Assembly (NCBI GenBank): GCA_016211195.1
Contig: JACQSS010000011.1
Location: 1 to 31,552 of the forward strand
Direction of reading: 5' to 3'
Origin: Candidatus Woesearchaeota archaeon
Lineage (GTDB): Archaea > Nanobdellota > Nanobdellia > Woesearchaeales > JAGVYF01
Length of the DNA: 31,552 bases
The notes under the pieces are model-generated. The model made no database searches. It saw only the letters and a program-made list of their open reading frames with translations, and was not told the origin of the DNA. The position numbers were made by a program, and so were the translations under genes. Positions 5,500 to 31,552 of the stretch are shown here, piece after piece (position 1 is the stretch's first letter; each line of letters begins with the position of its first letter).

Positions 5500-5512
5500 C
5501 TATTCTTGCGGT

Positions 5513-5721
5513 CCCATTGAAAAGTTTCCTCGCTATCGCTCCGTGGCCATCGGTTCGCATTTGATTGGTCAAAATGGGTCCATACTCCGCAGCTTGCTGC
5601 GGTTGGGATTTTTTAATTCACACGGTGTTGGCAAAAATCCCTCTTGCAATTCCTTTTTGCTTGATTGAGTAACAAGTTGATGCTCACAGTATTGATGGCC
5701 ATCGTGAACTTTTCAATATGG
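5513..5721 (-). repeat. MITE-like repeat element, copy B. It is complete at ~209 bp and inverted relative to copy A.
   Basis: Reverse complement matches 1-119 and 170-241. Perfect 11-bp terminal inverted repeats ATTGAAAAGTT (5516-5526) and AACTTTTCAAT (5707-5717). No transposase ORF inside. Confidence 0.85.
5587..5614 (+). terminator. Hairpin plus T-tract downstream of the giant gene, located inside repeat copy B
   Basis: Palindrome CCGCAGCTTGCTGCGG (7-bp stem, 5587-5602) followed by TTGGGATTTTTT (T6 at 5609-5614), about 90 nt after the stop at 5499. Confidence 0.5.
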
Positions 5722-5737
5722 CCGAGTAACAGTAACA

Positions 5738-5745
5738 TTTATAAA
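5738..5745 (+). promoter_or_regulatory. TATA-box-like element (TTTATAAA) upstream of the aglB operon
   Basis: Ends 23 nt before ATG 5768. Confidence 0.45.
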
Positions 5746-5767
5746 AAAAGTGCAATCTGGCTGAGAC

Positions 5768-6319
5768 ATGAGACTGAGATTTCGCAAGGAAACCGCCTCA
5801 TTGATACTCCTTGCCATTATGGTCCTAAGCGGCCTAGGCGTTTACGTCGGAAATCAGGACGAAACAGCAACAACATATAATGGGTATCAATTTTTCCCCC
5901 AGCCGAGTGGTTGGCTTGTGCGAATAAACAATGCCCAGTACCAGTTTCAGTACTTGCCGACGGACACTAATTTCAGCATCGGTACAATCCCCCTCGGAGA
6001 AAAAGTGTATATCGCATATGACCCACTTGAAAAGAATATTACTACCGAGAACATTATTGCACAGACTAGTGCATTATTCCGGCAATTTGGTGTATGGCCA
6101 GTGGTGGCATGTGTGAGAGAAGAAGGTTGTCCGGCAGATTTACCCCTCGTTGCATGCGAGACAGCACCAGCACCCGTCTTCTATTTCCGCAGTGCCGAAG
6201 AAAGAGGAGTTGTTCATCAGGGGCAATGCATCATTATCCAGGCACAGACGAGCATAGACCTGCATAGAGCAGTCGAACGAATGGCATATCAATTGCTGGG
6301 GGTCATGAAGAATGAGTGA
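5768..6319 (+). CDS. Membrane-anchored extracytoplasmic protein of unknown function (183 aa)
   Basis: N-terminal TM segment ASLILLAIMVLSGLGVYV followed by a soluble domain containing cysteines. Overlaps the aglB start by 8 nt, so it is probably co-transcribed. Confidence 0.65.
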   Translation: MRLRFRKETASLILLAIMVLSGLGVYVGNQDETATTYNGYQFFPQPSGWLVRINNAQYQFQYLPTDTNFSIGTIPLGEKVYIAYDPLEKNITTENIIAQTSALFRQFGVWPVVACVREEGCPADLPLVACETAPAPVFYFRSAEERGVVHQGQCIIIQAQTSIDLHRAVERMAYQLLGVMKNE

Positions 6320-13112: not shown

Positions 13113-13460
13113 TTACCGTGCCAACCCAATGAGTGAGACGCCGATGATGATACTGCATATCCCCGCAGTTTTCAACAGGTTGATGTCTTCCCTGAGTTGG
13201 TATTTTGACAAGAGAGTAATCCAGATATATGCTGTCGACGTTAGGGGATAGATCACTGATAGGTCACCAAACCGGAGAGCCACGAGGCCCAATGCCATGC
13301 CGACACCATAGCATCCAACCCCGATGACAAGATGTTTGGAGGCCGAACTTTTCAAGGACCATGATAGTTGTGCAGCGGCTTTTTTCAGATAAAGCGCTCC
13401 AAATGATCCGGTAACACATGAAATCAACACAAGTGCCATTGCACCAACTGTTGTTGCCAT
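13113..13460 (-). CDS. Half-size EamA/SMR-like membrane protein (4 TM), ArnE/ArnF-like, subunit 2
   Basis: Four hydrophobic helices in ~115 aa. The motif FGDLSVIYPLTSTAYIW parallels the paralog upstream. The start is placed at ATG 13460, which shares one nucleotide with the upstream stop (TAATG). Confidence 0.65.
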   Translation of the reverse strand: MATTVGAMALVLISCVTGSFGALYLKKAAAQLSWSLKSSASKHLVIGVGCYGVGMALGLVALRFGDLSVIYPLTSTAYIWITLLSKYQLREDINLLKTAGICSIIIGVSLIGLAR

Positions 13461-13831
13461 TATCCTGTCCTCATGGCAATGGCTGTTTTTGACCCCAAGC
13501 CAATGAGCGAAACTCCGAAAATGATTAGTCCGATACCAACCCAACGAAGAGGGGGAATGTCCTCATGTAGGATAAATAAAGAGAGCAAATTGACCCAGAT
13601 GAAGCTTGTAGCAATGCCTGGGTAGAGAACAGAGAGTTCCCCGAATTTCAATGCCACAAGCAAGAGTCCAGCTGCGATGACATAGAGCAAAAGGCCGAGG
13701 AGTAATGGTCCATTCATCGGGAGTGTTCGGCTGATTTTCATCACTCCTGTCTTGAGAAGCAGTTGTGCCACAGATGTAAAGAATGTGCATGTGAGCACGA
13801 GAGCCATTGCCCACCATTTTGTTTGCTGCAT
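13460..13831 (-). CDS. Half-size EamA/SMR-like membrane protein (4 TM), ArnE/ArnF-like, subunit 1
   Basis: 123 aa with four hydrophobic helices. FGELSVLYPGIATSFIW motif. Confidence 0.65.
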   Translation of the reverse strand: MQQTKWWAMALVLTCTFFTSVAQLLLKTGVMKISRTLPMNGPLLLGLLLYVIAAGLLLVALKFGELSVLYPGIATSFIWVNLLSLFILHEDIPPLRWVGIGLIIFGVSLIGLGSKTAIAMRTG

Positions 13832-17570: not shown

Positions 17571-17577
17571 AAAAAGA
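17571..17577 (-). terminator. Oligo-T tract (TCTTTTT on the minus strand) immediately after the tRNA 3' end
   Basis: Plus-strand AAAAAGA directly abuts the discriminator base. Archaeal terminators are typically oligo-T tracts. Confidence 0.45.
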
Positions 17578-17652
17578 CGCGCCTGGGGGGATTCGAACCC
17601 CCGACCTTCAACTTAGGAGGCTGACGCTCTATCCAAACTGAGCTACAGGCGC
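17578..17652 (-). tRNA. tRNA-Arg(CCT): tRNA-Arg (anticodon CCT), no intron, CCA not encoded
   Basis: The reverse complement folds by hand into a cloverleaf: acceptor GCGCCTG/CAGGCGC, D stem GCTC/GAGC, anticodon stem TCAGC/GTTGA with loop CTCCTAA, T stem GGGGG/CCCCC with loop TTCGAAT. Total 75 nt. Confidence 0.9.
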
Positions 17653-17673
17653 ATGTGGTCGGGCAAAGAGCCA

Positions 17674-18375
17674 TTACTTAAAATCCTTTGCAATGCCCCA
17701 TAACAGTTCGAAATACTGCCGGAATGCGTCTGCAATGCCACTGTTGTTGATAAGAATTCCCAACGGCTTTTCCGTCCAGAGAATGATGGCCACCTTACTG
17801 CCATAAATATTCACAGCCGCTTTTGCATCAAGGGGGAGATATCGTATCGTGCTCAAGGGGATTGGGTATGACGGCCGCTGATTAAAGATCATCCGTATCT
17901 GGATGTGCTTCTTCTTCCTTGCTTCATCATACTTGTGGAAATAATACTTGATGATTTCCTGTGCCTGCGGCGATGCGCCAAGGACCAGAATCTCTTTTGC
18001 AGCCAGCTGGTCTGCGAGGATAGTCTTTACCCCTTCCTTTCCGCGGTAAAAGACCGTCTCCTGCTTTTCCTTGACGGTATTGAATTTGTTCAGGAGAGAC
18101 GGCATGATTTTTTCGACATCTTCCTGCGCCTGTTTCATGAGCTCGATGACATGCGCCGGGTTGGTCGCTTCATAGCGTTTTCGCTTACGCTCGACGATAT
18201 AACTAACAAGTCCTTTCTCAGCCAATCTGGCTAATAAATCATAAACCGAGCGGCGGTGGATGCCACTATGTTTTGCAATGCTTCCTGCGAGTGATGGGCC
18301 ATCATCCAGCAATGTCAGATAGACCTTTGCCTCATTCCGTGTGAGTCCAGCCAGCAACAGGATTTTTTCATCCAT
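17674..18375 (-). CDS. TrmB-family transcriptional regulator
   Basis: N-terminal winged-HTH LTRNEAKVYLTLLDDGPSLAGSIAKHSGIHRRSVYDLLARLAEKGLVSY, followed by a C-terminal effector-type domain. Confidence 0.8.
   Translation of the reverse strand: MDEKILLLAGLTRNEAKVYLTLLDDGPSLAGSIAKHSGIHRRSVYDLLARLAEKGLVSYIVERKRKRYEATNPAHVIELMKQAQEDVEKIMPSLLNKFNTVKEKQETVFYRGKEGVKTILADQLAAKEILVLGASPQAQEIIKYYFHKYDEARKKKHIQIRMIFNQRPSYPIPLSTIRYLPLDAKAAVNIYGSKVAIILWTEKPLGILINNSGIADAFRQYFELLWGIAKDFK
17676..17683 (-). promoter_or_regulatory. TATA-like element (TTTTAAGT on the minus strand) upstream of tRNA-Arg
   Basis: Lies 24 nt upstream of the tRNA 5' end and overlaps the TrmB stop codon. Confidence 0.4.
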
Positions 18376-18398
18376 GCCAAGTTCTCAGTTTTTCCACC

Positions 18399-19460
18399 TT
18401 AAAAATGCTGTGCTGCGAACAGCTCAGCAATCTGGGCTGGCCTCGTTGCATCGCGAGGTCCCTTATCCGTTGGTTCCCTGATGTGGGTGATGACAGGAAT
18501 AAGCAACGAATATGCTTTGTCCAAGCCCCCGCAGCTGTGCCAGTTGTCATTGTAGCTGATATCCTGTGCCTTGACCGTGACAACGATTGACTTGTCTGGA
18601 TTGACATACGCAGTCGGTATCTTGCGCTGGTACGTCTTTTTCTGCAATTTGGGGTTAAAGACAATATTCGGCGGAGGGCTATTGGTCAACTGTGATCCAA
18701 TGGATGTGGCGATTTCCTGTTGCAGTTCTCCCGTAACACCAACCTTAACCACAGTCTCATAGGTTCCTGTCGCATCGTTATATGCGCAGAGCAGAACAGC
18801 ATTGAATGGATTATTGTACACGCCGCCGACCACGAGGTCCAGTGTCTCAAATTCCTTAAGCTTGAGCCATGTCTTTGATTCCTTTCCCGCAAGGTATGGT
18901 GCCGTCCTATCTTTGGCGACAAGCCCTTCTTCCTTGCGCGTGTGCACAACGTCCATATAAAACGCAACCAAGTCTTGTTGTGTTGAGATATGCCTACTCT
19001 CTGCAGCAAGGACATTCTTTCCCACAACTATCTTCTCCAGCAGTCCGCGTCGTTCATCAAGCGATGCATCGAGCATTGACTGGCCATAGTAGAGCACGTC
19101 AAAGACACGCAACTGTATCGGGTACTCAGCTACTTTGGCATGGTCTGGATTTTTCTTTGGTCGGCGCTGGATAGCAACAAGGCCTTCTGCACCACCGGCA
19201 GTTCCTACGATTTCTGCGTCAAAGATCGTGGCAATCCTATAGCGCTCAAGGTCTGGCAGCAATTCCGGGAAGCATCGGGGATTAAGCTCCACAAAGTTTT
19301 TGGAAAAGAAGCATGGCCCCTGTCCGGGCATGATGTGGACTTCTGTCCGTTGTCCATTGTATTTGATGTCTGCCTGCGTTCGTCCCTTGTGCTGGCGCAA
19401 GGCGTTCTCCAGATTTCCATTAACCGCTTTCTGGAATGGGATTGGGGTTCCGGGTTTCAT
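18399..19460 (-). CDS. Minimal ATP-dependent DNA ligase (nucleotidyltransferase plus OB domains, no N-terminal DNA-binding domain)
   Basis: Motif I IKYNGQR (a variant of KxDGxR), motif III FDAEIVG, IIIa LRVFDVLYYG, IV EGLVAKD, V TWLKLK, and a motif VI-like IREPTDKGPRDAT. 353 aa. Confidence 0.8.
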   Translation of the reverse strand: MKPGTPIPFQKAVNGNLENALRQHKGRTQADIKYNGQRTEVHIMPGQGPCFFSKNFVELNPRCFPELLPDLERYRIATIFDAEIVGTAGGAEGLVAIQRRPKKNPDHAKVAEYPIQLRVFDVLYYGQSMLDASLDERRGLLEKIVVGKNVLAAESRHISTQQDLVAFYMDVVHTRKEEGLVAKDRTAPYLAGKESKTWLKLKEFETLDLVVGGVYNNPFNAVLLCAYNDATGTYETVVKVGVTGELQQEIATSIGSQLTNSPPPNIVFNPKLQKKTYQRKIPTAYVNPDKSIVVTVKAQDISYNDNWHSCGGLDKAYSLLIPVITHIREPTDKGPRDATRPAQIAELFAAQHF

Positions 19461-20659
19461 TGGTCATCACCATATTTCTTCATCGCATGCTGGAGTGCAC
19501 CATCATATCTGTTCTCAAGCGCATTGAGGATAGAACTGATGGCACATGCCGAACTTGCATATTGGTTCTTTTCTGTCTTATTCCGCCGCTGCAACGATGC
19601 CATAAAGCTGAGCCTCTTTTCCAGTTCCTTAATGTCATCATCATGGTCAAGGTGCGCTATTTTCCGGACAGAATGCTGTATCTGCCGGAGTGATGTCGAA
19701 TGACCCATGAGATTTTTTGTCTCGTAGACGAGATGGCCGAGCATTGCATACCGCTCGATGCGTTTTCCCAGTACTGTCTCCCGTATGGTGGGATATGCAA
19801 TGAGCAGCTCTCCAGCAAGCAGTTCCACCCGTTTGCGCGCCAATGGTGTTTTGGTCATGTGCTGGCAGAGCAGTGTCATATCATAAGCAAGGTCATAGAT
19901 CGTCTGTGCAGGCCGCTCTCTGAGCGCTGTCGCAAGCTGCTTGTTCAACCCCCTGTTCTCGTAGAGCATAAGATAATCTGTAAGCACGTCCCCGTCAATA
20001 GGGATGTCTTTGCTTGCTTCTACTCGCTCCTCAACTTTTTTTCCGAAAGCTGACAATGCCTCGAGTTTCATTGCAAGCGCTTCAAGCGAGAGGTCATGCT
20101 CATTGTCTTTCAGGTGGATAATCTTTCCTCGCACACCCGCTTCCTTATGCAGGAACAGTGTCCAGTTCGTGCAGAGACCATTATACCATGAAATACCGTA
20201 CTTCACTGCAGATTCGCCGTTGCCGCCCCAGTTTCCGTACTTTCCGAGGTCGATGAATGCATAGAGGTTGCCTAGTGAACCCGATAAAGGAACATGGACC
20301 ATTGATGGATGGAACTGCTGCTCGACAATACCCCCAACGTGTAGGCGAGTGAGTGCGTCGCGTATCTGATCAGCAGTAATGCCTGCAAATTTTGATGTGA
20401 CAAGCCCGAACCATTCCTGCCCGGTGCCCCTCACGTAATAGTCACGGTGCTGGAGCTCTTCCTCAAGGCGCATGGCCAAATACATGTTAGCATCATCGCT
20501 GTTCAAACCATTGCATTCGTCCCTCCGGATTCCCAGCCTGCGCATGAGTTTCTGTGTCAGTGGGTGGGGGAGGACGATTTCTCCACCCGGTGTCTCGATA
20601 TGGACATGGCTGTTCACTGTGACTTTTCCTTCAAGCTTTTTGACGATTGTATTGTTCAT
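19457..20659 (-). CDS. Hypothetical protein with a DUF932-like N-terminal domain and a helical C-terminal extension
   Basis: Its stop overlaps the ligase start (ATGA). ATG 20659 is preceded by GGTGA at 5-nt spacing, so the GTG at 20668 in the ORF track is probably part of that SD. The core NGESAVKYGISWYNGLCTNWTLF resembles the DUF932 core DGS...G..R.VCTNG. Confidence 0.7.
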   Translation of the reverse strand: MNNTIVKKLEGKVTVNSHVHIETPGGEIVLPHPLTQKLMRRLGIRRDECNGLNSDDANMYLAMRLEEELQHRDYYVRGTGQEWFGLVTSKFAGITADQIRDALTRLHVGGIVEQQFHPSMVHVPLSGSLGNLYAFIDLGKYGNWGGNGESAVKYGISWYNGLCTNWTLFLHKEAGVRGKIIHLKDNEHDLSLEALAMKLEALSAFGKKVEERVEASKDIPIDGDVLTDYLMLYENRGLNKQLATALRERPAQTIYDLAYDMTLLCQHMTKTPLARKRVELLAGELLIAYPTIRETVLGKRIERYAMLGHLVYETKNLMGHSTSLRQIQHSVRKIAHLDHDDDIKELEKRLSFMASLQRRNKTEKNQYASSACAISSILNALENRYDGALQHAMKKYGDDQ

Positions 20660-20690
20660 TTTCTTCACCGGGCATCGGAAATCAGCAGTA

Positions 20691-20779: not shown

Positions 20780-21949
20780 ATGTACGACACCATTTATGAA
20801 CCACGGGAAGACACGTACCTGCTTGGTCGGGCCGTGAGTAGATATGCCCATGGTCGCGTGCTCGACATGGGTACTGGATCCGGCTATCTGGCCCATCTTG
20901 CTGCCCGTAAAGCAAAGCGTGTTGTCGCCGTTGACATCAATCCGGAAGCAATCGCCTATTGCCGTAAGCAGCATCATGACAGGAATATAACATTCATTGA
21001 AAGCAATCTCTTTTCTGCATGTGTTGGTCCATTTGACACAATCATCTTCAACCCGCCATATCTCCCATACGATAAGCGGGAGCCATTGCAGTCGCGGCTC
21101 ATCACGACTGGAGGGAAACATGGCTATGAGCTTCTTGTTCGTTTTATCCAACAGAGCTCGCGCTATCTTTCTTCCCGAGGAGTAATCCTTATTGTGTTTA
21201 GTTCCCTCACCAACAAAGAGAAAATTGATGAGGTGATCATGCAATCTTTGCTCGAGAAAGAAATGGTCATGATGCAGAGGATACCTCATGAGCAGTTGTA
21301 CGTGTATCGTATTACCAAAACTCCTGTGTATACTGTGCTGGAGAAAACCGGAGTTACGGAACTCGCTTTTTTTGCAAAAGGTAAGCGTGGTCTTGTGTTC
21401 ACGGGTCAACTGGGGAATAAGACCATCGCAGCCAAAGTACATCACCCGATGTCCCGGGCGCTTGAAGCATTAGCCCGTGAGGCACGGATGCTGAACGTTG
21501 TTAACAAGCTCGGCATAGGGCCTAAGCTGCTTGGCCACGGCAAATGGTATGTGCTCTATGAATTTGTTCCGGGTGAGCAATTCCGCTACAGGTTGCCATC
21601 CATGAACAAAGATAACCTCAAAAAATTCTTTAAGAGCTTGCTGCTGCAACTTCTTATGCTCGATAAGCATGGCATTGCTAAGGAAGAGATGAGTAACCCC
21701 TATAAGCATATCATTGTTGATGGTGCAAAGCCGGTCCTGCTCGATTTTGAGCGGGCGCATAAGACAAAGCGACCGCATAATGTCACCCAGTTCTGCAGTT
21801 ACCTGTTACGGTTACAGCCCCTTCTTGTCCGGAAAAAGATACGATTCTCGCGTAATGCAGTCATTGCATGGGCAAAGAATTATCGTCCACAACAGCAGTA
21901 TCTTAATAAACTGCTTCGTATTCTTTTCAGTCATGGGAGAACACTATAA
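20780..21949 (+). CDS. Fusion protein: Mtq2/PrmC-like NPPY methyltransferase plus a C-terminal atypical Bud32/RIO-like kinase domain
   Basis: N-terminal part: YEPREDTYLL, VLDMGTGSGYLA and FNPPY (21050-21061). C-terminal part: glycine loop GKRGLVFTG, AAKVHH lysine, EARML helix-C Glu, LDKHGIAKEEMSNPYKHIIV and LLDFERA. The start at 20780 is chosen from the TATA spacing and the canonical Mtq2 N-terminus. ATG 20711 is an alternative. The ORF upstream of that overlaps the opposite-strand gene. Confidence 0.75.
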   Translation: MYDTIYEPREDTYLLGRAVSRYAHGRVLDMGTGSGYLAHLAARKAKRVVAVDINPEAIAYCRKQHHDRNITFIESNLFSACVGPFDTIIFNPPYLPYDKREPLQSRLITTGGKHGYELLVRFIQQSSRYLSSRGVILIVFSSLTNKEKIDEVIMQSLLEKEMVMMQRIPHEQLYVYRITKTPVYTVLEKTGVTELAFFAKGKRGLVFTGQLGNKTIAAKVHHPMSRALEALAREARMLNVVNKLGIGPKLLGHGKWYVLYEFVPGEQFRYRLPSMNKDNLKKFFKSLLLQLLMLDKHGIAKEEMSNPYKHIIVDGAKPVLLDFERAHKTKRPHNVTQFCSYLLRLQPLLVRKKIRFSRNAVIAWAKNYRPQQQYLNKLLRILFSHGRTL

Positions 21950-22529
21950 CGCATTTAAAAAAAAGGTGTTTGAAGAGGCATCACTCGAGCTGCAGTCACA
22001 GCTTGAAATGTTATTGCAAGATTTTTCGCATGGTACGATAACTGAGAAGGAATTCGACAAGAAAAGCGAAGAGCTGATTGTAGAACGTGCATTGCAAAAG
22101 TATCGCGAAACAGTACAGCTGTCTCATGATATCCCATTAGTCCTTGAAGCCACCAAGGAGATCTTGCGTAATTATTGTGATCATACAGAGTATTGTTGTT
22201 CTATGCTCGATTCATATCGCCAGAACCCCCATGTTGCTGCGCAAGATTATGAATTGATGGTGCGCTATCTTGATGATGCCAAGCGCGATTTTCCTTTGTG
22301 GCAGGAAGGGTCCGATATAGGGATGGCATTCAAGGAAGCCGCCAGTTGGGGCATGGATGAAGAGACCCTTTACGCAGCGTTCAGTGTGACGCTCGAAAGA
22401 CTTAGTGCCATCCAGCGTCGACTGGTTTTACCTGATTATAGAGAAGATGTCCGTAAAGATATTGACATTCTTGCAAAAGCCTTTCTGGACGAGTATCGGA
22501 AAGACCGTGGTCCTGACATATGCCACTGA
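21933..22529 (+). CDS. Hypothetical alpha-helical protein (198 aa)
   Basis: ORF with its first ATG after the upstream gene body. Overlaps the upstream stop by 17 nt and the downstream start by 10 nt. No motif recognised. Confidence 0.6.
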   Translation: MGEHYNAFKKKVFEEASLELQSQLEMLLQDFSHGTITEKEFDKKSEELIVERALQKYRETVQLSHDIPLVLEATKEILRNYCDHTEYCCSMLDSYRQNPHVAAQDYELMVRYLDDAKRDFPLWQEGSDIGMAFKEAASWGMDEETLYAAFSVTLERLSAIQRRLVLPDYREDVRKDIDILAKAFLDEYRKDRGPDICH

Positions 22530-22999
22530 CATACTATGATGAGCTTGCGCGGGGCTATGACCGGTTGCACGGTGACGAACAACGGCTGAAGCGAGCCATT
22601 CTCATTGCACATTTGCCCAACGTGCTGGGTAGAATCCTTGATATTGGCTGTGGAACCGGATTGTCATTCTCTCGGAAAAATACGATTGGCCTCGACCCGA
22701 GCATTCGATTGCTCAGATTGGCGAAGAAAAGAGGCGGGTTGCTTGTGCAGGGCTGCGGAGAGGCACTGCCATTCAAGGACAAGTCATTTGCTCTTGTGCA
22801 ATCAGTCAGTGCACTGCATAACTTCCACGACTGGCGGTTGGGTATAGCAGAGATGCGGCGCGTCTCGTCGCAGTGGGTCATTATTTCTCTCCTGAAAAAA
22901 GCAAAGGAGTATAAACAGATTCGGGCAGAAATTCTCACCTTTGCATCAGTACGGGAAATCGATGCAGATCGCGATACGCTCTTTGTGTGCACAGTGTGA
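22520..22999 (+). CDS. Small class I SAM-dependent methyltransferase (Methyltransf_11 / Bud23-like)
   Basis: YYDELARGYD at the N-terminus, motif I ILDIGCGTGLS, and post-I GLDPSIRLL. 159 aa. Confidence 0.75.
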   Translation: MPLTYYDELARGYDRLHGDEQRLKRAILIAHLPNVLGRILDIGCGTGLSFSRKNTIGLDPSIRLLRLAKKRGGLLVQGCGEALPFKDKSFALVQSVSALHNFHDWRLGIAEMRRVSSQWVIISLLKKAKEYKQIRAEILTFASVREIDADRDTLFVCTV

Positions 23000-23096
23000 T
23001 TTTTTTGTCTCAATCCTGCGCACTCCCTGCGAATCATCCTTAAAAAGCGGTTTCTCCTAGATACCATTGTGGCACAAAGGTGTCACAGGTGACTCT

Positions 23097-23468
23097 ATGT
23101 CATGCGGTGCATTCACGTTGTATGGGCAGCTCTGTGGTGTGGATGGCGGGAAACCATCATATGCCCGTAGTGCTGAGTGCTGTCAGTCCACGTTTGCAGA
23201 CGTTTATGCACACGTATCGCCCTACGAAGCCACAGTGCAGAAAGATGTTGCTCATCAAGCAGAGGACTGCTGGAAGCCAGTCCTTTACGTTCAGAAAGAG
23301 ACGCCTATCCTGCCAGCACGGGAACTCGGGTTCACTTACCATCCAACACTTGACCTTGCGCTTAGTTATATGGCCTCGTCGAAAAAAGAAACGTGGGAAC
23401 AAGAACGGGACCAGCTTGAAGAGCTGATTGCCCGGGAGAAAAAACGATGCAGCACGACGACTTGCTAA
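23097..23468 (+). CDS. Hypothetical Cys-containing protein (123 aa)
   Basis: ATG 23097 is preceded by AGGTGA at 4-nt spacing. The 3' end overlaps the AAA ATPase start by 22 nt. The C-terminus WEQERDQLEELIAREKKR looks like an amphipathic helix. Confidence 0.5.
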   Translation: MSCGAFTLYGQLCGVDGGKPSYARSAECCQSTFADVYAHVSPYEATVQKDVAHQAEDCWKPVLYVQKETPILPARELGFTYHPTLDLALSYMASSKKETWEQERDQLEELIAREKKRCSTTTC

Positions 23469-24535
23469 AAAAGGCGCAGGAAAGAGAACTTCTTGCAGGT
23501 GAAGTAGTTGAGCATGAGGAGAGAAAAGCCCTGCTTCTGGAGGCTGCTGATATCTATATCACATTATCAAAGGTCTGTGCAGCAGGCCTTGCCCAGACAT
23601 ACGTCCAACGTGCCAAAGAATGCTATGTCGCATCGCAGCAGCAGCCTAAAAAATCATATCGCCCTCTTATTGTCGAGGAGAAGAAATTGTCATTCGATGA
23701 CGTTGCAGGTTTGGAGCAAGTCAAGGAGAAAATCCGGCTGAAGATTATAGAACCTTTCCGGCACCCAGACCTCTACGCATATTATGGGAAAAAGGTTGGA
23801 GGGGGTATTCTTATGTACGGGCCTCCGGGTTGTGGAAAAACTCTGATAGCAGAAGCTGCGGCGCATGAAGCCGGTTGTTCATTCTTTGTTGCCAATGTGA
23901 GTAACCTGACCAGCAAATATGTGGGTGAAACGGAAAAGAATATCTCCAGTCTCTTTGCACAGGCGCGGGAAGCTGCGCCCAGTATCATCTTCTTTGATGA
24001 GCTTGAAGCCCTGGGTAGTGAGCGGAGCACTGCACAGGAATATGCCCGGACTGCAGTCAGCCAATTGCTCGTTGAAATCAATGGTCTGGGAAACCGCGAC
24101 CAACGTATCCTGCTGATTGGTGCAACCAATGAACCATGGAATGTGGATATCGCATTGCGGCGGGCAGGACGATTCGGGGATCCTCTTTTTGTCCCCCCCC
24201 CAGACTTCAAGACACGGTACAAACTTGTCAAGCAGTATCTCACATTAAAGCCTGTCGCGGGTGATGTCAATGGTATTGCCATTGCTATTGAGACTGAAGG
24301 ATATTCTGGCGCAGACCTTGTGGAGCTGTGCGATAACGCCATTGAGATCGCGTTGCGGGATTCGCTCGCCAGCAAAAAGCCACGTCAGGTAACGATGGAT
24401 GATTTCATTGCTGTGCTTTCAGGCAAACGGGCAGCAACTGTGAATTGGTTCAGGATGGCATTGCAGGAGTTGAAGAAGGATGATACACTCTTTGGTGAGA
24501 TCATGCAGCACAGCCGTCGGCTGGTGGCGATATGA
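23447..24535 (+). CDS. Single-domain AAA+ ATPase (Vps4/CDC48-like) with a helical, possibly MIT-like, N-terminal domain
   Basis: Walker A GPPGCGKT, Walker B IIFFDELEAL, SKYVGETEK, second region of homology GATNEPWNVDIALRRAGRFG. The N-terminal ~65 aa are helical. Confidence 0.85.
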   Translation: MQHDDLLKKAQERELLAGEVVEHEERKALLLEAADIYITLSKVCAAGLAQTYVQRAKECYVASQQQPKKSYRPLIVEEKKLSFDDVAGLEQVKEKIRLKIIEPFRHPDLYAYYGKKVGGGILMYGPPGCGKTLIAEAAAHEAGCSFFVANVSNLTSKYVGETEKNISSLFAQAREAAPSIIFFDELEALGSERSTAQEYARTAVSQLLVEINGLGNRDQRILLIGATNEPWNVDIALRRAGRFGDPLFVPPPDFKTRYKLVKQYLTLKPVAGDVNGIAIAIETEGYSGADLVELCDNAIEIALRDSLASKKPRQVTMDDFIAVLSGKRAATVNWFRMALQELKKDDTLFGEIMQHSRRLVAI

Positions 24536-25443
24536 AGAGTATTGTGTTCCTGCTTCAGGCAGGCTGCAATGAACGATGTCTTTTTTGCTTTAACCATTGG
24601 CGTGAACATGGGCAGATGGCCACATTGTCTCCTGCAGAAAAAAGACGGGCGATTGACAGCGTCATTGCCTTAGCACCATCAATGATAACGTTGTCTGGTG
24701 GAGAGCCATTGCTTGACAAAGGGTTGCCGTCTCTTGTTGATTATATCCGTCAAAAGGCGCCGCAGCTGCCGCTATCCATCCAGACAAATGGTACACTCTT
24801 GACACCAGAGCTTGCAGCCCGGTTCCGGACAGTGAACTATTTTTTCATTTCCTTGCATGGTCCGGAAAAGATACATAATGAACTGACACGGGGACCTTTC
24901 TTTCACAAGACAATGCAAGGTATACGCATTGCGGCTGCAGCAGGCATCCCCGTTGTTCTCAATACGGTTGTGACACGAGCCAATATCGTATCCCTTCCCA
25001 TGTTCCTCAAGGAATGCGCACAGCTTGGCATTGCTGCGCTCCAATTATCTGCTCTGTACGCAGCAGGGGTGGCGCGTAGTCGTCATTATCTTTTTCCAAG
25101 TATGGCTCAGCAAAGGGAACTTGTGCAGGCCGTTTCCTTTCTTTCCCTGCCCTACCACGTTACCTTCCACGCATTTGAGAAGCATCTCCTTCAGGGAACT
25201 CCTTTTCATGCTGACCACTGCGGTGCTGGTGATGAGGAAATAGCCATCCAACCAAATGGGGATGTGACACTCTGTCCAGCGTGGGAGCAGACGTATGGCA
25301 ACATCATGCTGGATGATTGGTCTGTTATTGAGCAGCAGATGAAGTGGGGTCTTGCGCAGGAGAAGCCGATTATTTCAGCATGTCAGGACTGCGGTGGCTG
25401 TGCGCTTTCACGCAAGGCAGCAATCATGGAGCAGTCAGGATAA
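24532..25443 (+). CDS. Radical SAM enzyme with a C-terminal SPASM/twitch-type Cys cluster
   Basis: CNERCLFC (CxxxCxxC) at residues ~12-19, GGEPLL, and a C-terminal CGAG...NGDVTLCP...CQDCGGC. The ATGA overlaps the AAA gene stop. Confidence 0.8.
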   Translation: MKSIVFLLQAGCNERCLFCFNHWREHGQMATLSPAEKRRAIDSVIALAPSMITLSGGEPLLDKGLPSLVDYIRQKAPQLPLSIQTNGTLLTPELAARFRTVNYFFISLHGPEKIHNELTRGPFFHKTMQGIRIAAAAGIPVVLNTVVTRANIVSLPMFLKECAQLGIAALQLSALYAAGVARSRHYLFPSMAQQRELVQAVSFLSLPYHVTFHAFEKHLLQGTPFHADHCGAGDEEIAIQPNGDVTLCPAWEQTYGNIMLDDWSVIEQQMKWGLAQEKPIISACQDCGGCALSRKAAIMEQSG

Positions 25444-26018
25444 TCTTTTTCAGGTGCCAGCTGGTCACGGGGACCGACAAACAATACGCGAAATCCATAC
25501 TGTCGAAGCAGTGCCAGAATCTCCTTTTGCCATGGGCGATAGAAAGGGCATCTGAATTGCTGGGATGAGCCTGCATGGATGACCCAATCCAGGATGCCCT
25601 GCTGATACCATTTGCGCTGCTCGATGGTGAAGAGAAAAATGCCATTAGGCACCAGCACGCGGCTCACCTCCCTGATGCACATTGCCTGCAGGTGTGGCGT
25701 GAGATGACACAATCCGTTGTATGAAAATAATGCATTCTCAAAACTGCCGGGGATAAAAGGGAGCTGTGCTGCATTGCCAATAACGGATCGGGGAAAATGG
25801 GCTTGAGCGAGCATGGCATTAGACAAATCCAGCGCAACCGGCTGATATCCTGCACGTTCAAGACAGTGCGTTGTCCTGCCTGTCCCGGCACCGAGATCAA
25901 GAGTCCTGCCACGTCTGAAATAGCGCCTGATGAGTATTTCTTCAGTAGCCCAAAGTTTTTTTCTGGCTGCGTACAGGGCAATAACTTCCGGATTTGAGTA
26001 TGCCTCACGAACGCTCAT
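25383..26018 (-). CDS. Class I SAM-dependent methyltransferase
   Basis: Motif I TLDLGAGTGRTT and post-I ALDLSNAML. The ATGA overlaps the kae1 stop. The 3' end overlaps the convergent radical-SAM gene by 61 nt. Confidence 0.75.
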   Translation of the reverse strand: MSVREAYSNPEVIALYAARKKLWATEEILIRRYFRRGRTLDLGAGTGRTTHCLERAGYQPVALDLSNAMLAQAHFPRSVIGNAAQLPFIPGSFENALFSYNGLCHLTPHLQAMCIREVSRVLVPNGIFLFTIEQRKWYQQGILDWVIHAGSSQQFRCPFYRPWQKEILALLRQYGFRVLFVGPRDQLAPEKDYPDCSMIAALRESAQPPQS

Positions 26019-27644: not shown

Positions 27645-29753
27645 CTACTTCATTATTTCGTGTATCTGCTCTGGCCCTGAGATTACTTGATAGCCGAAAA
27701 CAGGACCTTGCACATGCTTCATCACTTTCTCAATGAGCTGTTTTGTCTTGTGCTCAGCAGCGTCAATTCCTATCTCGGGCATGACAATATAATAACTAAA
27801 CTGTGAGCGCGGTACCTTTGTCATGAAATCAATTGGCCTCAGGTCAGCTTCGATGATTGCTTCAATCCTTGTTATCAGGGACAATGCCTCATCCCGCTTC
27901 ATTGTCTGGAGAATGCGTTCGAAATTGGTGATATTCAGCATGATAAGTGACAACGGTTTTCCGCTCTCGTGCGTGCGCTTCCATTCAGCAGAGAGCTGCT
28001 CCTTGAAGTTATTGAGGCCGCGTGCCTGCGTATGGTAGAACTGGTAAAAGAATCCATGTCGCTCCAGTAGTTTGGTGAATGTGCCTTGTTCGGCCACAAC
28101 ACCATCCTGCAGAAAGACAATCTTATCAACATTCTTGATTGTTGACAAACGGTGGGCAATGATGATTGTTGTCTTGCCCCGGGTGGCATACTCCAATGCT
28201 TCCTGTATCTTCTCTTCAGACTCAGAATCGAGAGAAGATGTGGCCTCGTCAAGGACGATAATCTTCGGGTTTTTCAAGATTGTCCGTGCAATGGAGATGC
28301 GCTGTTTCTGTCCGCCGGAGAGATTGACACCCCGCTCGCCTACAATCGTATTGTATCCCTTTCTGAGCTTCGCGATAAAATCATGGATGTTGGCAAGCCG
28401 TGCAGCTTGTTCTATTTCTTCGTCGGTCGCATCCAGTTTGCCCAGCCGGATATTCTCTTTGATGGTGGCATTAAACAAAATGGTCTCCTGTGAAACATAT
28501 CCAATATTACGTCGCAGGGCTGCAAGTTGTACGTCACGTAGATCTTTTCCATCCAGTGTGATTTTGCCCTGTGCCGGGTCATAGAACCGTGCAATAAGGT
28601 TGGCAATCGTTGTCTTGCCTGAACCTGATGGCCCAACCAAACCCACTGCTTGTCCTGACTTTACCACGAAACTGACATCCTGCAGCACCGGTGCAGTTGG
28701 TTGATAGGAAAAACCAACGTGCTGCAAAGTAACTGCACCCTTGATCAGTCCTAGGGGGCGAGCATTTTTCTTCTCGACGACTTTTGGTTTCGTGTCCAGA
28801 AATTCGAAGACTCTGTTCACGGAAACCATTGTTGACTGGATCGCGATATTGATGCTGCCTAATTCAGAGATAGGACCGAATAGCTTTCCAATATATGTGT
28901 ACAGTGCCATCAGTGCACCGACAGAGATGACATCCTTGATAACCATGTAGCTGCCGTACCACAGGATGATGATCAGTGGAGTGAACGTAATAAGCCCCAC
29001 AACAGTGCCGCTATAGCTTTGGAGAAGGCTGAGGTCCAGATTTAGGTTGATGAGCTTCGTATTTTTTTTCTTGTAGCGCTCGAGCGCGACATTTTCCAGC
29101 ACAAACGACTTTATTGCCTGAATGCTGGTAATGTTCTCCTGCAAGAAGCTAAGCAGGTCACTGGCCCTGTTGATAAGGATCTGTTTTTTCTTACGTACCA
29201 GCTTCCCAAAGTACTTCTGGCTCACGACGTAAAATGGGAAAAAAGCCAATGATGCAAGTGTCACCTGCCAGTTGAGGGAGAGGCAGATGGCGAGAATAAA
29301 AATAGTTGTCAGGACATTCATCAGGATGGAATCAACCACAATGCCGATGAATGATTCAATGCCATAGACGTCATCGTCCAGACGGACAAGAATGTCCCCT
29401 ATCTTGCGCGTATGGAAAAAGCCCAAGTCCAGGTTTTCCAAATGCTCAAACAGCTTGGTCTTGACATCAAACACGATGTTTTCCGCGAGGAGTGTGGTCT
29501 GATAGGACGTGTAGATTTGCACGAAACTCTTGAGGAAGAACAATGCAATGAAGAGGAGCATAAGATAATAGAGAAGATTGAAATCTTTTCTGATGAGAAT
29601 GTCATCTATAAGGATCTTGACAAGGTACGGGCTGACTAAAGACAACGCAGTGAGAAAGGTGGCAATAACAAAGAGCCACAGGATAAGCCCTTTGTAGGGC
29701 GCGGCAAACCGCATGATGCGCCTGAATTTTTGATAGTAGTACCTGAATGCCAT
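27645..29753 (-). CDS. ABC exporter (fused TMD-NBD, MsbA-like) with a ~126-aa C-terminal degenerate GGDEF-like extension
   Basis: Six-TM ABC_membrane region, Walker A GPSGSGKTT, signature LSGGQKQR, Walker B IIVLDEATSSLD, H-loop IIIAHRL. The tail starts after ...FYQFYHTQ. Confidence 0.85.
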   Translation of the reverse strand: MAFRYYYQKFRRIMRFAAPYKGLILWLFVIATFLTALSLVSPYLVKILIDDILIRKDFNLLYYLMLLFIALFFLKSFVQIYTSYQTTLLAENIVFDVKTKLFEHLENLDLGFFHTRKIGDILVRLDDDVYGIESFIGIVVDSILMNVLTTIFILAICLSLNWQVTLASLAFFPFYVVSQKYFGKLVRKKKQILINRASDLLSFLQENITSIQAIKSFVLENVALERYKKKNTKLINLNLDLSLLQSYSGTVVGLITFTPLIIILWYGSYMVIKDVISVGALMALYTYIGKLFGPISELGSINIAIQSTMVSVNRVFEFLDTKPKVVEKKNARPLGLIKGAVTLQHVGFSYQPTAPVLQDVSFVVKSGQAVGLVGPSGSGKTTIANLIARFYDPAQGKITLDGKDLRDVQLAALRRNIGYVSQETILFNATIKENIRLGKLDATDEEIEQAARLANIHDFIAKLRKGYNTIVGERGVNLSGGQKQRISIARTILKNPKIIVLDEATSSLDSESEEKIQEALEYATRGKTTIIIAHRLSTIKNVDKIVFLQDGVVAEQGTFTKLLERHGFFYQFYHTQARGLNNFKEQLSAEWKRTHESGKPLSLIMLNITNFERILQTMKRDEALSLITRIEAIIEADLRPIDFMTKVPRSQFSYYIVMPEIGIDAAEHKTKQLIEKVMKHVQGPVFGYQVISGPEQIHEIMK

Positions 29754-29874: not shown

Positions 29875-30186
29875 CTATAATTCCAGACTGAATTCGTTGC
29901 CTTTCAGGATATCGCCTGCTTTTGGCAGCTTTGTTGGTTTGACTGTGGCTTGTTTCGGTTGAACCGAGCCTCTCTTACCAGACAGTGCAGCCCATTTGCT
30001 GTCAAATGCATCAGCATCAACAAGGACATCACGTGTGACACCAGTCCCAGAAATATTCCGTATCCGGTAATATTTTCCATCAATCTTTTTACTGCCATCT
30101 AATTTCCAGTTGTTTTCCGCCATATCGTTCACCTCAGCGTATTTGGCCTCTTTTTGTTTTTCCACAGCTTTTTTGTTTATATACAT
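29875..30186 (-). CDS. Small hypothetical protein (103 aa)
   Basis: ATG 30186 is preceded by GGTGA at 5-nt spacing, so the GTG at 30195 in the ORF track is part of that SD. No family recognised. Confidence 0.55.
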   Translation of the reverse strand: MYINKKAVEKQKEAKYAEVNDMAENNWKLDGSKKIDGKYYRIRNISGTGVTRDVLVDADAFDSKWAALSGKRGSVQPKQATVKPTKLPKAGDILKGNEFSLEL

Positions 30187-30244
30187 TTCGGTCACCGTCT
30201 ATGTGTCCCTCTGCAGTAAAAACCAAAATCTTAAATAGGTGCTC

Positions 30245-30257
30245 AACAACGGTTGTT
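30245..30257. promoter_or_regulatory. 6-1-6 palindrome AACAACgGTTGTT in a divergent intergenic region, a candidate operator
   Basis: Perfect inverted hexamers between the divergently oriented small genes at 30186 (-) and 30305 (+). Confidence 0.3.
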
Positions 30258-30304
30258 CTACCTTTTCAAAAAAGAGGAAATAAAAAACGGTGAGGTGTAC
30301 GACA

Positions 30305-30517
30305 ATGGTAAGAGAACTTGCAAAAGTGAGAGGTCAGTTGGGAGACGACTATCTTAAGCTTGATGTCAGTAACAAATCTCCTGCTGCTGACTCCAGCGAG
30401 TTTAAGGTTCTGAGGAGTAAGGTTGAGAAACTCTTCCCCGGCGAAAAGAAACTGGTTGGGAAGGCAGTCTTCGTGACCAAGTGGAAAGGAAACGAAGCAG
30501 AAACTGTTGAGAAGTAA
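30305..30517 (+). CDS. Small hypothetical protein (70 aa), paralog family member P1
   Basis: ATG preceded by GGTGAGGTG. Shares GDDY.KLDV...FKVL..KV.K.FP...V.KWK with the next ORF. Confidence 0.6.
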   Translation: MVRELAKVRGQLGDDYLKLDVSNKSPAADSSEFKVLRSKVEKLFPGEKKLVGKAVFVTKWKGNEAETVEK

Positions 30518-30540
30518 TTTTCTTCTCTCTTTTTTCTTTC

Positions 30541-30786
30541 ATGTCACCGAAGACACTTACATTAGGTACTCTTGTTCGTATAAATGGTTCTTCGGGTGAT
30601 TATTTCTCATTGGATGTCATTGGGGGTATGCCTGTACTAGGCAAAGTCCCGCCGGAAAATACGCCGTTGAAAGTGCTGAAGACCACTGTCCAGAAACGCT
30701 TTCCTAGTGCACAAGACGGACTCGAGTTCAAAGTCATCAAATGGAAAAAAGATGTCGCTGTGGAAATAACTGAAATCAATGGCTAG
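30541..30786 (+). CDS. Small hypothetical protein (81 aa), paralog family member P2
   Basis: SGDYFSLDV...LKVLKTTVQKRFPS...EFKVIKWKK aligns with P1. Confidence 0.6.
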   Translation: MSPKTLTLGTLVRINGSSGDYFSLDVIGGMPVLGKVPPENTPLKVLKTTVQKRFPSAQDGLEFKVIKWKKDVAVEITEING

Positions 30787-31031
30787 TCTTTTATGACCTT
30801 CTTTATTTTGATGAGAAACCTGTTCTGCCCAATAAAACGCCGATCATACTCTACTTCTGGCATTTGCTTTTTTTCAAATGCATCAATGAGATCTGCCTTG
30901 ACCAATGGCGATTCAACATCTGCGACATAAAATCGTTTCCGTCTGACATCCATGACAGAACCGCCAATCAGTTCAAGACCGCTGCTTTCAACTTGTTTGA
31001 AGTGCCACTCACGGACCTTGCTGCGTGTCAT
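30783..31031 (-). CDS. Small hypothetical protein (82 aa), paralog family member P3
   Basis: REWHF...GG...RFYVADVESP...LIDAFEKK...EVEY aligns with P4. Its start abuts the P4 stop. Its stop shares CTAG with the convergent P2 stop. Confidence 0.6.
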   Translation of the reverse strand: MTRSKVREWHFKQVESSGLELIGGSVMDVRRKRFYVADVESPLVKADLIDAFEKKQMPEVEYDRRFIGQNRFLIKIKKVIKD

Positions 31032-31292
31032 TCACTCACGCTCGCTGGTAATACCTGTGATTTCTATCTTCTCCCGGTTCTTGCCAAGTTTGATAACTTT
31101 GTATTCGACGACTGGTGGATTCTTCGCGTGCTTGTCGAAGACTGCCTGAATATTTGCCTGCATGTCCGGACTCATGTCTTCGATAAAGAACTGGTGGTGC
31201 TCTCGGTTGTTCAGTTGCCCGCCACGCAAGACAGGCGTGAGCGTCTTCTCATCCATGATCCAGTACCATCGCCTTAGTCTGTCTTCTGGCAT
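31032..31292 (-). CDS. Small hypothetical protein (86 aa), paralog family member P4
   Basis: RRWYW...GG...QFFIEDMSP...IQAVFDKH...VEYKVIKLGKNREKIEITG. The C-terminal motif also resembles P2 (EFKVIKWKKDVAVEITEING). TAATG overlap with the upstream ORF. Confidence 0.6.
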   Translation of the reverse strand: MPEDRLRRWYWIMDEKTLTPVLRGGQLNNREHHQFFIEDMSPDMQANIQAVFDKHAKNPPVVEYKVIKLGKNREKIEITGITSERE

Positions 31293-31552
31293 TATGTCTT
31301 TACCTTGAATGATTTTGGCAAGGGTTCCTGCTTGCTTGGCTTCCGTAGATTTGTCGCATCGTTGTGCACATCGACGTCGAAAAAGACAACGTCTCCTATC
31401 TGGAACCGTTCTGCATCGTCAGGATTAGCGAGATTGACAACCTTATAACTGCTTCCGCTTTCAGGCACTTCTAATGCAATCCGTCCCCATGCACCCACAT
31501 GCTTCAGCCGCCCCAAGCGGGCTCTGCCCCCGTCTGTCGTGAGCCGTTTCAT
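31292..31552 (-). CDS. Small hypothetical protein (86 aa as seen). Its start coincides with the window edge, so it may be 5'-incomplete.
   Basis: ORF translationally coupled to P4 (TAATG). No family recognised. Confidence 0.5.
   Translation of the reverse strand: MKRLTTDGGRARLGRLKHVGAWGRIALEVPESGSSYKVVNLANPDDAERFQIGDVVFFDVDVHNDATNLRKPSKQEPLPKSFKVKT

Follow-up and report, generated by a model that had tools for sequence, protein, structure and literature searches.

Described systems closest to the locus

The genomes of DPANN archaea are tiny, and for most of the lineage-specific genes in them no function is known. The present analysis concerns a block of six genes (g1 to g6) at positions 20780-25443 of a 31,552-nucleotide stretch of woesearchaeotal DNA (contig JACQSS010000011.1), which is referred to here in its entirety as the window. 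The block had previously been interpreted from the letters and open reading frames (ORFs) of the window by themselves (the sequence-only reading). A rough probability of 45% is now given to an explanation in which two operons adjoin: g1-g3, whose enzymes would modify the translation apparatus, and g4-g6, whose products would be a small client protein, an AAA+ ATPase that threads it and a radical-SAM (S-adenosylmethionine) enzyme that modifies it. The features of the block, in their order on the window, are as follows.

g1, 20780-21949, forward strand, 389 amino acids: Mtq2/HemK2 methyltransferase fused to an ArkI-family kinase-like domain
g2, 21933-22529, forward strand, 198 amino acids: helical orphan protein, overlapping g1 and g3
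g3, 22520-22999, forward strand, 159 amino acids: short class-I SAM-dependent methyltransferase
g3-g4 spacer, 22996-23096, forward strand: conserved non-coding stretch, proposed terminator and promoter
g4, 23097-23468, forward strand, 123 amino acids: small cysteine-tipped orphan protein
g5, 23447-24535, forward strand, 362 amino acids: single-ring AAA+ ATPase with a helical N-domain
g6, 24532-25443, forward strand, 303 amino acids: radical-SAM enzyme with a trimmed SPASM motif

SPASM-type radical-SAM enzymes with both auxiliary cysteine groups act mostly on peptide or protein substrates. The described cassettes include PqqE/PqqD, MftC/MftB, AlbA, SkfB, anSME and QhpD, and g6 resembles their enzymes in its CX3CX2C motif and its C-terminal SPASM-type cysteines. 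Like them, it shares a short operon with a small cysteine-containing protein, g4. In contrast to these cassettes, no RRE or PqqD-like domain or protein accompanies g6, and the genes of the candidate substrate and of the enzyme are separated by one for an AAA+ ATPase. The candidate substrate is also a protein of 123-235 amino acids with conserved termini rather than a leader-core peptide, and members of the window clade have the SPASM motif reduced to CX2CX2C. No described system combining an AAA ATPase with a SPASM enzyme was found in full-text literature searches, which is weak evidence of absence; to our knowledge, AAA-assisted radical-SAM protein modification has not been described before.

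Two groups of AAA+ ATPases are comparable to g5. It has the Walker A and B motifs, pore loop, arginine fingers and AAA_lid_3 of the Cdc48/p97 D2 domain, but differs from Cdc48 and PAN in having a single AAA domain and lacking the Cdc48 N-domain, the PAN coiled-coil/OB region and the HbYX motif. With Vps4/CdvC it shares a single AAA ring preceded by a helical domain of about 65 amino acids, and its pore loop, SKYVGETEK, resembles that of the Vps4/spastin/katanin group. Similarly to an ESCRT-III partner, g4 adjoins g5 and has a C-terminal amphipathic helix as its only widely conserved internal feature. In contrast to Vps4/CdvC, however, g5 gives no Pfam MIT or Vps4_C match, its lid is AAA_lid_3 and its Walker A motif is of the p97-D2 type. 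As for ESCRT-III itself, no Snf7 match was obtained in g2, g4 or nine upstream small proteins, and the g4 helix departs from the MIM1 consensus; a MIM1 motif in that helix was considered and discarded for its unfit spacing. ESCRT-III homologues are present in all major archaeal lineages except DPANN, according to a review (PMC7619361).

The two enzymes closest to g1 both act on the translation machinery. In characterised systems, Mtq2, a protein N5-glutamine methyltransferase with Trm112 as its activator partner, methylates the glutamine of the release-factor GGQ motif. ArkI is a 2'-kinase that phosphorylates tRNA at U47, and has DFE in place of the kinase DFG motif as a family-specific feature (PMC9095486).

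Gene order in relatives and a probable division into two units

A search with the radical-SAM protein returned seven proteins at 49-54% identity, then, after a large drop, two Woesearchaeote proteins at 27-30%, and after these only generic enzymes; the g6 orthogroup was defined as P0002-P0011. The complete block in the same order is found in L002. In L004, g1-g3 are followed by two inserted genes and then by an intact g4-g6, and on the shorter contigs L003, L005, L008, L009 and L010 the g4-g5-g6 end of the block is seen, followed by Kae1. Identity of these relatives to the window is highest for Kae1 (79-84%), followed by g5 (66-70%), g1 (56-58%), g6 (50-54%) and g3 (about 50%), and is lowest for g4 (33-36%) and g2 (25-28%). 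Two distant Woesearchaeote loci, L006 and L007, have only the small protein, the AAA ATPase and the radical-SAM enzyme, with overlapping junctions and unrelated flanks (44% identity to the window for the AAA ATPase and 29% for the radical-SAM enzyme). In L012, g1 occurs without adjoining g2 or g3, about 5.5 kb from the small-protein gene and 6 kb from the AAA gene, with unrelated genes between.

The flanks of the block vary. In L002 and L004, the 5' half of a tRNA-Arg lies about 80 nucleotides from g1, whereas in the window three genes (17576-20668) stand between tRNA-Arg(CCT) and g1: a TrmB regulator, a short DNA ligase of 353 amino acids and an orphan of 403 amino acids. On the downstream side, only some of the loci have a methyltransferase gene between the block and Kae1. 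Because the gene order recurs in genomes with 25-70% protein identity and different flanks, it appears to be conserved beyond chance. The sequence-only reading had proposed gene-order conservation as the check on its operon, and the adjacency kept in relatives argues against pure chance packing. As a separate observation, the tRNA 5' halves in L002 (around 5880-6000) and L004 (around 495-620) are identical to that of the window, and at these sites no tRNA is called by ARAGORN, while the Rfam match is confined to model positions 9-63. An intron or a rearrangement may be present in the tRNA, and the window may carry a tRNA-adjacent insertion.

The spacer between g3 and g4 has a mean column identity of 79% across the window, L002, L008 and L004, above that of the flanking proteins. 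In the window, its 5' block GTGATTTTTTTGTCTCAATCCTG (22996-23018) includes the g3 stop and then a T7 run, a TATA-like CTTAAAAAG lies at 23039-23047, 50 nucleotides before the g4 ATG, and the 3' block CACAAAGGTGTCACAGGTGA contains a Shine-Dalgarno sequence, AGGTGA (23087-23092), 4 nucleotides ahead of the same ATG. Three blocks are invariant in the alignment: GTGA(T/C)ATTTTTGTCTCA..TCTG directly after the g3 stop; (C/T)CTTAAAAA(G/T), an archaeal TATA-like element; and CACAAAG.TGTC(A/G)CAGGT(G/A), which includes the Shine-Dalgarno site. The two genes inserted in L004 lie between g3 and the conserved spacer block, which remains attached to g4. Thus g4-g6 probably have their own promoter in the spacer and would form a separate transcription unit driven from the promoter-like element, while g1-g3 probably terminate in the T-rich block. 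A scan with bacterial promoter and terminator models gave no enrichment, and such models are not applicable to archaea.

The L004 insertion itself (2957-5178) consists of two unrelated orphan genes, each of 321 amino acids, on the opposite strand. A remnant identical to the 3' end of the L008 g3 sits just upstream of the g4 promoter-like block, and no direct repeats were found at the insertion.

Because the spacer is conserved, because the insertion in L004 falls exactly at the gap and because L006 and L007 keep only g4-g6, an architecture of two units, g1-g3 and g4-g6, is likely. The single six-gene operon of the sequence-only reading is therefore probably not correct, and the g1 of L012 also speaks against it. 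A rival explanation is that all six genes form one operon and one pathway of protein or ribosome modification and remodelling, with a common target such as a ribosomal protein, a release factor or the pre-ribosome. This idea draws on the six-gene order itself, which is kept in L002, and in L004 apart from the insertion, at 25-70% identity and with a different upstream flank. It also draws on the translation-related nature of g1, on the presence of Kae1 and another methyltransferase immediately downstream, and on the likeness of the g5 core to the D2 domains of Rix7, Afg2/Drg1 and NVL as well as to p97. It is nevertheless quite unlikely: a promoter-like spacer separates g3 from g4, L004 tolerates two genes at that point, the trio occurs without g1-g3 in L006 and L007, the g1 of L012 stands apart from g2 and g3 and far from the AAA gene, and the overlapping junctions that suggested one operon are common across the window.

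These overlaps are themselves real. Six co-directional ORFs with junction overlaps of 17, 10, 22 and 4 nucleotides had been described, and both the ORF coordinates and the junction sequences agree exactly; the start codons of all six ORFs are also consistent with ortholog alignments. The single gap and its Shine-Dalgarno sequence are likewise borne out, but the gap covers 23000-23096 (97 nucleotides) and had been placed at 22999-23097, one position too wide at each end. Among the other co-directional junctions of the window, 7 of 15 overlap when longest-ORF starts are taken, or 4 of 15 if only clean overlaps of 4 or 8 nucleotides are counted. The hypergeometric probability of at least four overlapping junctions among five, calculated by hand, is about 0.06-0.22. 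Since overlapping junctions are frequent throughout the window, the overlaps of the block show no significant excess and largely reflect genome compaction.

Compaction had also been offered as an explanation of the whole block, and it largely accounts for the overlaps, but probably not for the gene order. In that explanation, unrelated housekeeping genes are packed together and their common order reflects the limited divergence of close relatives. The 4-7 overlapping junctions among the 15 others fit it, as does the synteny of AglB, isopentenyl-phosphate kinase, a binding protein, Kae1 and the ABC transporter, which is partly kept in the close clade. It has little chance of being sufficient, however, given that the block persists while its flanks are rearranged, both in the tRNA-g1 segment and at the methyltransferase before Kae1. 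In addition, the trio is met again, at 20-44% identity, among neighbours of another kind, the pair of small protein and AAA ATPase is found in about ten DPANN lineages, and the g6 orthogroup was never observed without the AAA gene.

The g4 protein and its counterparts in other lineages

As the sequence-only reading had held, g4 belongs to no assignable family. It has no significant Pfam match and no NCBIfam or PADLOC match, and its profile found nothing significant in the PDB. An exhaustive phmmer search of 1.84 billion representatives gave 5 genuine relatives (the 7 matches listed include the query itself and one spurious repeat protein), while a word-index search returned only the query. The two termini are the best-conserved parts, and the interior is variable in length and sequence. 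An N-terminal Met-Ser-Cys is invariant in nine sequences, and Cys3 is the sole cysteine common to all g4 proteins of lineages that carry the radical-SAM gene. Other conserved motifs are LGF[ST]YxPxLD and a charged C-terminal helix, ERxELExLIAxEK.

The g4 gene lies directly upstream of the AAA gene in every case. A scan with the AAA alignment identified about ten further Woese- and Nanoarchaeota loci (L012-L020) that have a small protein with the AAA ATPase, and in all 13 of the 13 evaluable Woese- and Nanoarchaeota loci the gene immediately before the AAA gene encodes a small protein with M-x-C or M-C at its start and a charged helix at its end. In L012-L020 these upstream proteins are rich in Tyr, Gln, Asn and Pro, with starts such as MVCSPHQY, MSCNG, MCCDG and MTCNK, and none of these loci has an adjoining radical-SAM gene. 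The g5 N-domain and the g4-type C-terminal helix co-occur in all lineages, and both are conserved although g4 is fast-evolving. That g4 and g5 work together as a functional pair is quite likely.

Some of the loci are more elaborate. In L013, L014, L015, L016, L017, L018 and L020, three consecutive genes encode M-C or M-x-C proteins, namely a small Tyr- and Gln-rich protein, a stand-alone copy of the AAA N-domain of about 100 amino acids, and the AAA ATPase. Each start codon overlaps the stop codon before it as ATGTG, and several of the proteins have His-rich tails (HHHH, EHTHDHEHGEHTHVH). The shared starts and these tails may point to the binding of metal or to a common N-terminal modification.

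The g5 AAA+ ATPase

The description of g5 as a single AAA domain with a helical N-domain is supported by Pfam (AAA, E=1.2e-38; AAA_lid_3, E=1.5e-10). The core contains Walker A (GPPGCGKT), the pore loop KYVG, Walker B (FFDE), arginine fingers and AAA_lid_3; its best PDB stretches lie in p97 D2 (residues around 457-709), and it is also like the D2 domains of the ribosome-biogenesis ATPases Rix7, Afg2/Drg1 and NVL. On these motifs g5 is classed as a Cdc48/p97-D2-type single AAA protein, with all those expected of a substrate-threading AAA ATPase. Close-clade orthologs have 66-70% identity to g5, and that of L006 has 44%. In all curated models of AAA subfamilies, g5 scores below the cutoff (184 of 500 bits for PAN, 190 of 803 for CDC48 and 181 of 650 for CdvC NF041006). 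A role as proteasome activator was also considered and rejected, as no g5 ortholog has HbYX; the C-termini read ...LVAI, ...EVVA, ...LAAT, ...SIAA and ...HSFN, without a penultimate Tyr.

The N-domain, of about 65 amino acids, is helical and conserved, and residues 1-84 match no Pfam family even at E<=1. Some DPANN lineages have extra copies of this domain that are stand-alone, fused or in tandem; in L012-L020, a further stand-alone or fused copy is frequent.

Two AAA genes outside this group of loci were noted. An IMG/VR contig (L173, IMGVR_UViG_3300035102_000171) encodes, at 4914-6005, a AAA ATPase of 363 amino acids with 39% identity to g5, a similar helical N-domain and GPPGCGKT; neither an M-x-C protein nor a radical-SAM gene is its neighbour. 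A viral or mobile origin of the block was considered and set aside, as this one virus-like IMG/VR contig with a related AAA gene lacks the other two genes of the trio and does not explain the window. In a Phycisphaerae metagenome-assembled genome (L042, 4134-7858), a bacterial TPR-AAA gene carrying the GGGILMYGPPGCGKT signature, as in g5, is divergent from a pair of SPASM radical-SAM genes, possibly for heme-synthesis enzymes of the AhbC/D/NirJ type, whose adjacency to the TPR-AAA gene may be coincidence.

The g6 radical-SAM enzyme

The identification of g6 as a radical-SAM enzyme with SPASM-type cysteines is confirmed by a Pfam Radical_SAM match (E=8.6e-24), with the SPASM motif trimmed and its score just short of the cutoff (21.4 bits against 21.5). 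The motifs CNERCLFC (C12, C16 and C19; CX3CX2C) and SGGEPLL are conserved in the orthogroup. The C-terminal cysteines of the window clade are CX12GX4C and CX2CX2C, against a full reference pattern of CX9-15GX4C ... CX2CX5CX3C ... C. Because the distant orthologs P0010 and P0011 keep the canonical CX2CX5CX3C, a deletion of 7 residues in the second SPASM block is deduced for the window clade. The radical-SAM motif begins at residue 12, which leaves g6 without an N-terminal RRE domain, and no PqqD-like match was found in g2, g4 or g5. All curated radical-SAM family cutoffs lie far above the score of g6 (best 78 bits against 500-650). The nearest curated families include the small-molecule enzymes AhbC/D, NirJ and MoaA, and also BlsE, and PDB matches include SkfB and PqqE.

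The g6 start overlaps the g5 stop by 4 nucleotides, as ATGA, and this is kept in six close-clade loci in which both genes are called. Genes of the g6 orthogroup lie downstream of a AAA gene in every contig of sufficient length and were not seen without one. No AAA gene adjoins the radical-SAM genes that fall outside the orthogroup, and a metagenome scan with the radical-SAM alignment recovered, besides L007, only generic radical-SAM genes, none of them next to a AAA gene. At its 3' end, g6 overlaps a convergent methyltransferase gene (25383-26018, reverse strand) by 61 nucleotides (25383-25443). In relatives the convergent partner is either a methyltransferase (overlap of 4-21 nucleotides) or Kae1 (about 92 nucleotides, within a non-conserved radical-SAM tail).

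A proposed cassette of a client, an AAA+ ATPase and a radical-SAM enzyme

In the mechanism proposed for g4-g6, the helical N-domain of a g5 hexamer would bind the C-terminal amphipathic helix of the small and presumably largely unstructured g4, and g4 would be threaded through the YVG pore. The RRE-less g6, translationally coupled to g5, would then modify the unfolded g4. The likeliest target would be either the Ser-Cys that is invariant at the N-terminus or the aromatic motif that is conserved, with Cys3 as the prime candidate site because it is the sole cysteine shared by the g4 proteins of radical-SAM lineages. The older and wider core is the g4-like protein with the AAA ATPase, to which a radical-SAM enzyme was added in two lineages.

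The step from the pair to the radical-SAM enzyme is the more tentative one: g4 is a candidate substrate of g6 by its position, and that it actually serves as one is rather doubtful. One alternative retains g4 and g5 as a remodelling or proteostasis pair, in which g4 is a former of polymers or condensates, or an adaptor, that the AAA ATPase disassembles, and g6 does not act on g4. The target of the radical-SAM enzyme might then be tRNA, rRNA or a cofactor; alternatively, the enzyme might be a client of the AAA ATPase, on which its Fe-S maturation would depend. Several observations are in keeping with this: the pair is much more widespread than the trio, many of the upstream proteins are low-complexity, with an abundance of Tyr, Gln, Asn, Pro and Gly, further copies of the N-domain, stand-alone or in tandem, occur in some lineages, g6 has no RRE and small-molecule enzymes are among its nearest families, and tRNA-modification genes (Kae1 and the ArkI-like domain) surround the locus. 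The alternative is unlikely all the same, in view of the conserved ATGA overlap of g5 and g6 in the six close-clade loci. Moreover, the radical-SAM gene stays with the pair after a change of neighbourhood, which argues for a shared function, and SPASM enzymes with both auxiliary cysteine groups are, as a family, mostly peptide- or protein-acting.

A more speculative and improbable extension is that, in a superphylum reported to be without ESCRT-III, the g4-like protein and the AAA ATPase are a DPANN-specific functional analogue of ESCRT-III/Vps4, in which the MIT/TPR-like ATPase would disassemble polymers or condensates of the low-complexity protein with its cysteine tip via the C-terminal helix, and that some lineages have added an RRE-less SPASM enzyme that would cross-link or otherwise modify the small protein.

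A number of points weigh against the client/AAA+/radical-SAM cassette and the two-operon explanation in which it is set. All close-clade genomes share the downstream Kae1 at 79-84% identity, so the six-gene order could partly be residual synteny. The link between the AAA and radical-SAM genes amounts to two independent lineages, and about eight other DPANN lineages have the AAA ATPase and small protein without an adjacent radical-SAM gene. The g4 profile (A3) gave no matches to upstream proteins of the MVCxPH type, which may be analogous to g4 rather than homologous. At the N-domain of g5, a 14-sequence profile placed the MIT domains of calpain-7 (E=0.4) and VPS4A (E=1.3) among its top 10 matches, neither of them significant, so an MIT/TPR assignment does not reach significance, and a single-sequence AlphaFold2 (AF2) model gave one continuous long helix, which is uninformative. 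The g4 protein is longer than typical precursors of ribosomally synthesized and post-translationally modified peptides, and its sequence does not spell out the modification chemistry. The promoter and terminator are read from conservation and from resemblance to the archaeal type of TATA element. Along with promoter function, the physical contacts, the role of g4 as a substrate and the chemistry are what we infer from the sequences.

A defence-system reading was also examined and rejected. PADLOC gave only generic similarities to AAA proteins (IetA, TRIP13), viperin-like radical-SAM enzymes and methyltransferases, and the context is one of housekeeping genes.

The probable g1-g3 unit

The fusion of an NPPY methyltransferase with a kinase-like domain, as proposed for g1 by the sequence-only reading, is supported. 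The N-domain (residues about 1-180) passes the archaeal HemK2/MTQ2 model TIGR00537 (hemK_rel_arch), where residues 5-177 score 118.9 bits and the cutoff is 87, and matches PDB structures of human N6AMT1/HemK2 (E=1.6e-13). It carries NPPY within FNPPYLP, which is invariant in four aligned orthologs, and the SAM motif LDMGTGSG is present. The C-domain (about 190-389) gives only ArkI-type matches in the PDB (TkArkI 7vnx, E=1e-11; 8yv4, E=4e-9). The 7vnx match spans residues 6-159 of the domain and aligns LLDFERA with LIDFEKA, thus including DFE for DFG, and DFER is invariant among g1 orthologs. Bud32 had been considered for this domain, as Kae1 is nearby, and was dismissed when no Bud32 structure matched even at E<=1.

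The differences from described enzymes are also clear. Both predicted activities are on one polypeptide in g1, and ArkI has been described mainly from thermophiles. The HGQ catalytic-loop triplet of ArkI is not present in g1, which has GIAKEEM against GIDHGQI in TkArkI; the KEEM form is also found in 8yv4. The C-terminal YKR is partly kept, as NYR in the window, YKK in L012 and YA in L002 and L004, with only the Tyr invariant. The C-domain is thus classed by its sequence as ArkI-family (COG2112), but is not called ArkI itself, because it shares with the uncharacterised protein 8yv4 a KEE in the position of the HGQ loop. The fusion is kept in L002 and L004 (58% identity) and in the more distant Woesearchaeote L012 (44%); a scan of the genome collection with exact peptide patterns from g1 gave no matches. 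No Trm112-like ORF was recognised among the window ORFs examined, which do not cover the rest of the genome.

The second gene, g2, is like g4 in being without an assignable family. It has no significant Pfam match and no NCBIfam, PADLOC or PDB match, its profile found nothing significant in the PDB, and a word-index homolog search returned only a copy with 99% identity. Orthologs with 24-28% identity occupy the same position in L002 and L004, and the overlap of 10 nucleotides into g3 is kept in the three genomes. A single-sequence AF2 model is all-helical, though with a predicted local distance difference test score (pLDDT) of 51. The g2 product can be described as a fast-evolving, lineage-specific helical protein that may be an adaptor.

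The third gene, g3, had been read as a Bud23-like methyltransferase. It matches Pfam Methyltransf_11 (E=1.3e-11) and otherwise only the generic Methyltransf_25, and its best PDB match is 1vlm, a Thermotoga methyltransferase (E=9e-9). Bud23 chains follow (E=2.7e-5 to 3.7e-4), with matches confined to residues 5-100. Because the unrelated 1vlm matches better than Bud23 (about 3e-5 at best), the specific assignment is given up, and g3 is considered on these matches a generic class-I methyltransferase with a weak likeness to Bud23. Its orthologs in L002, L004 and L008 have about 50% identity. The suggestion of two Trm112-type methyltransferases in the block thus stands for g1, which passes the Mtq2 cutoff, and not for g3. 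Similarly, of the protein or ribosome modification and remodelling module that had been envisaged, the part concerning translation gains from g1, whose ArkI-family domain ties it to tRNA and translation; the same domain does not tie it to protein remodelling.

Surroundings of the block

The window also encodes AglB/STT3, an isopentenyl-phosphate kinase, glycosyltransferases, a TrmB regulator, an ATP-dependent DNA ligase and an ABC exporter. Directly downstream of g6 are a second methyltransferase and Kae1 (459 bits against a cutoff of 375), and a tRNA-Arg is the only tRNA and the only Rfam match in the window. Among public sequences, the nearest relative of the locus (contig JAHFLT010000006.1) bears the label Candidatus Woesearchaeota archaeon. 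The archaeal genes of the window and this label therefore identify the host as a Woesearchaeota-like DPANN archaeon with a compact genome.

Several other features of the window were noted. GGDEF domains are uncommon in archaea, and the ABC exporter (27645-29753, reverse strand; 702 amino acids, ABC_membrane and ABC_tran) has a C-terminal GGDEF-like domain (PF00990, E=4.8e-6); its orthologue in L003 gives an equally weak match. Adjoining the exporter, at 29875-31552 on both strands and also at 6979-8659 of L003, is an array of small ORFs of about 75-106 amino acids with similar C-termini (KVIKWK, KVIKLGK, FVTKWKG), which looks like a paralogous family of small proteins. At 13113-13831 (reverse strand) and at 2053-2762 of L002, an EamA transporter is encoded as two adjoining half-size genes (143 and 123 amino acids). 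Upstream of AglB, at 817-5499 (forward strand), lies a protein of 1560 amino acids with an N-terminal matrixin (Peptidase_M10) domain and a Big_3_4 match, which is probably a large secreted or surface protease.

Implications

Should the g4-g6 cassette prove to be mere co-location, the reading of the block as a six-gene operon would still be corrected to one of two units. In the first unit, the fusion of Mtq2 with an ArkI-like domain suggests a physical link of release-factor methylation with an RNA or protein kinase activity, and it widens the range of the ArkI family, here with a variant of the catalytic loop, to DPANN archaea that are apparently not thermophilic. In the second, a small gene pair encoding an M-x-C protein and an AAA+ ATPase persists in about ten lineages of Woese- and Nanoarchaeota. 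The g4-g6 unit is best described as a new variant of the radical-SAM protein-modification cassettes, built on this DPANN-specific small-protein/AAA+ pair. If this is true, an AAA+ unfoldase would replace the usual RRE domain in the delivery of the substrate to a SPASM enzyme, and ATP-driven unfolding would be coupled to radical chemistry in a new way.

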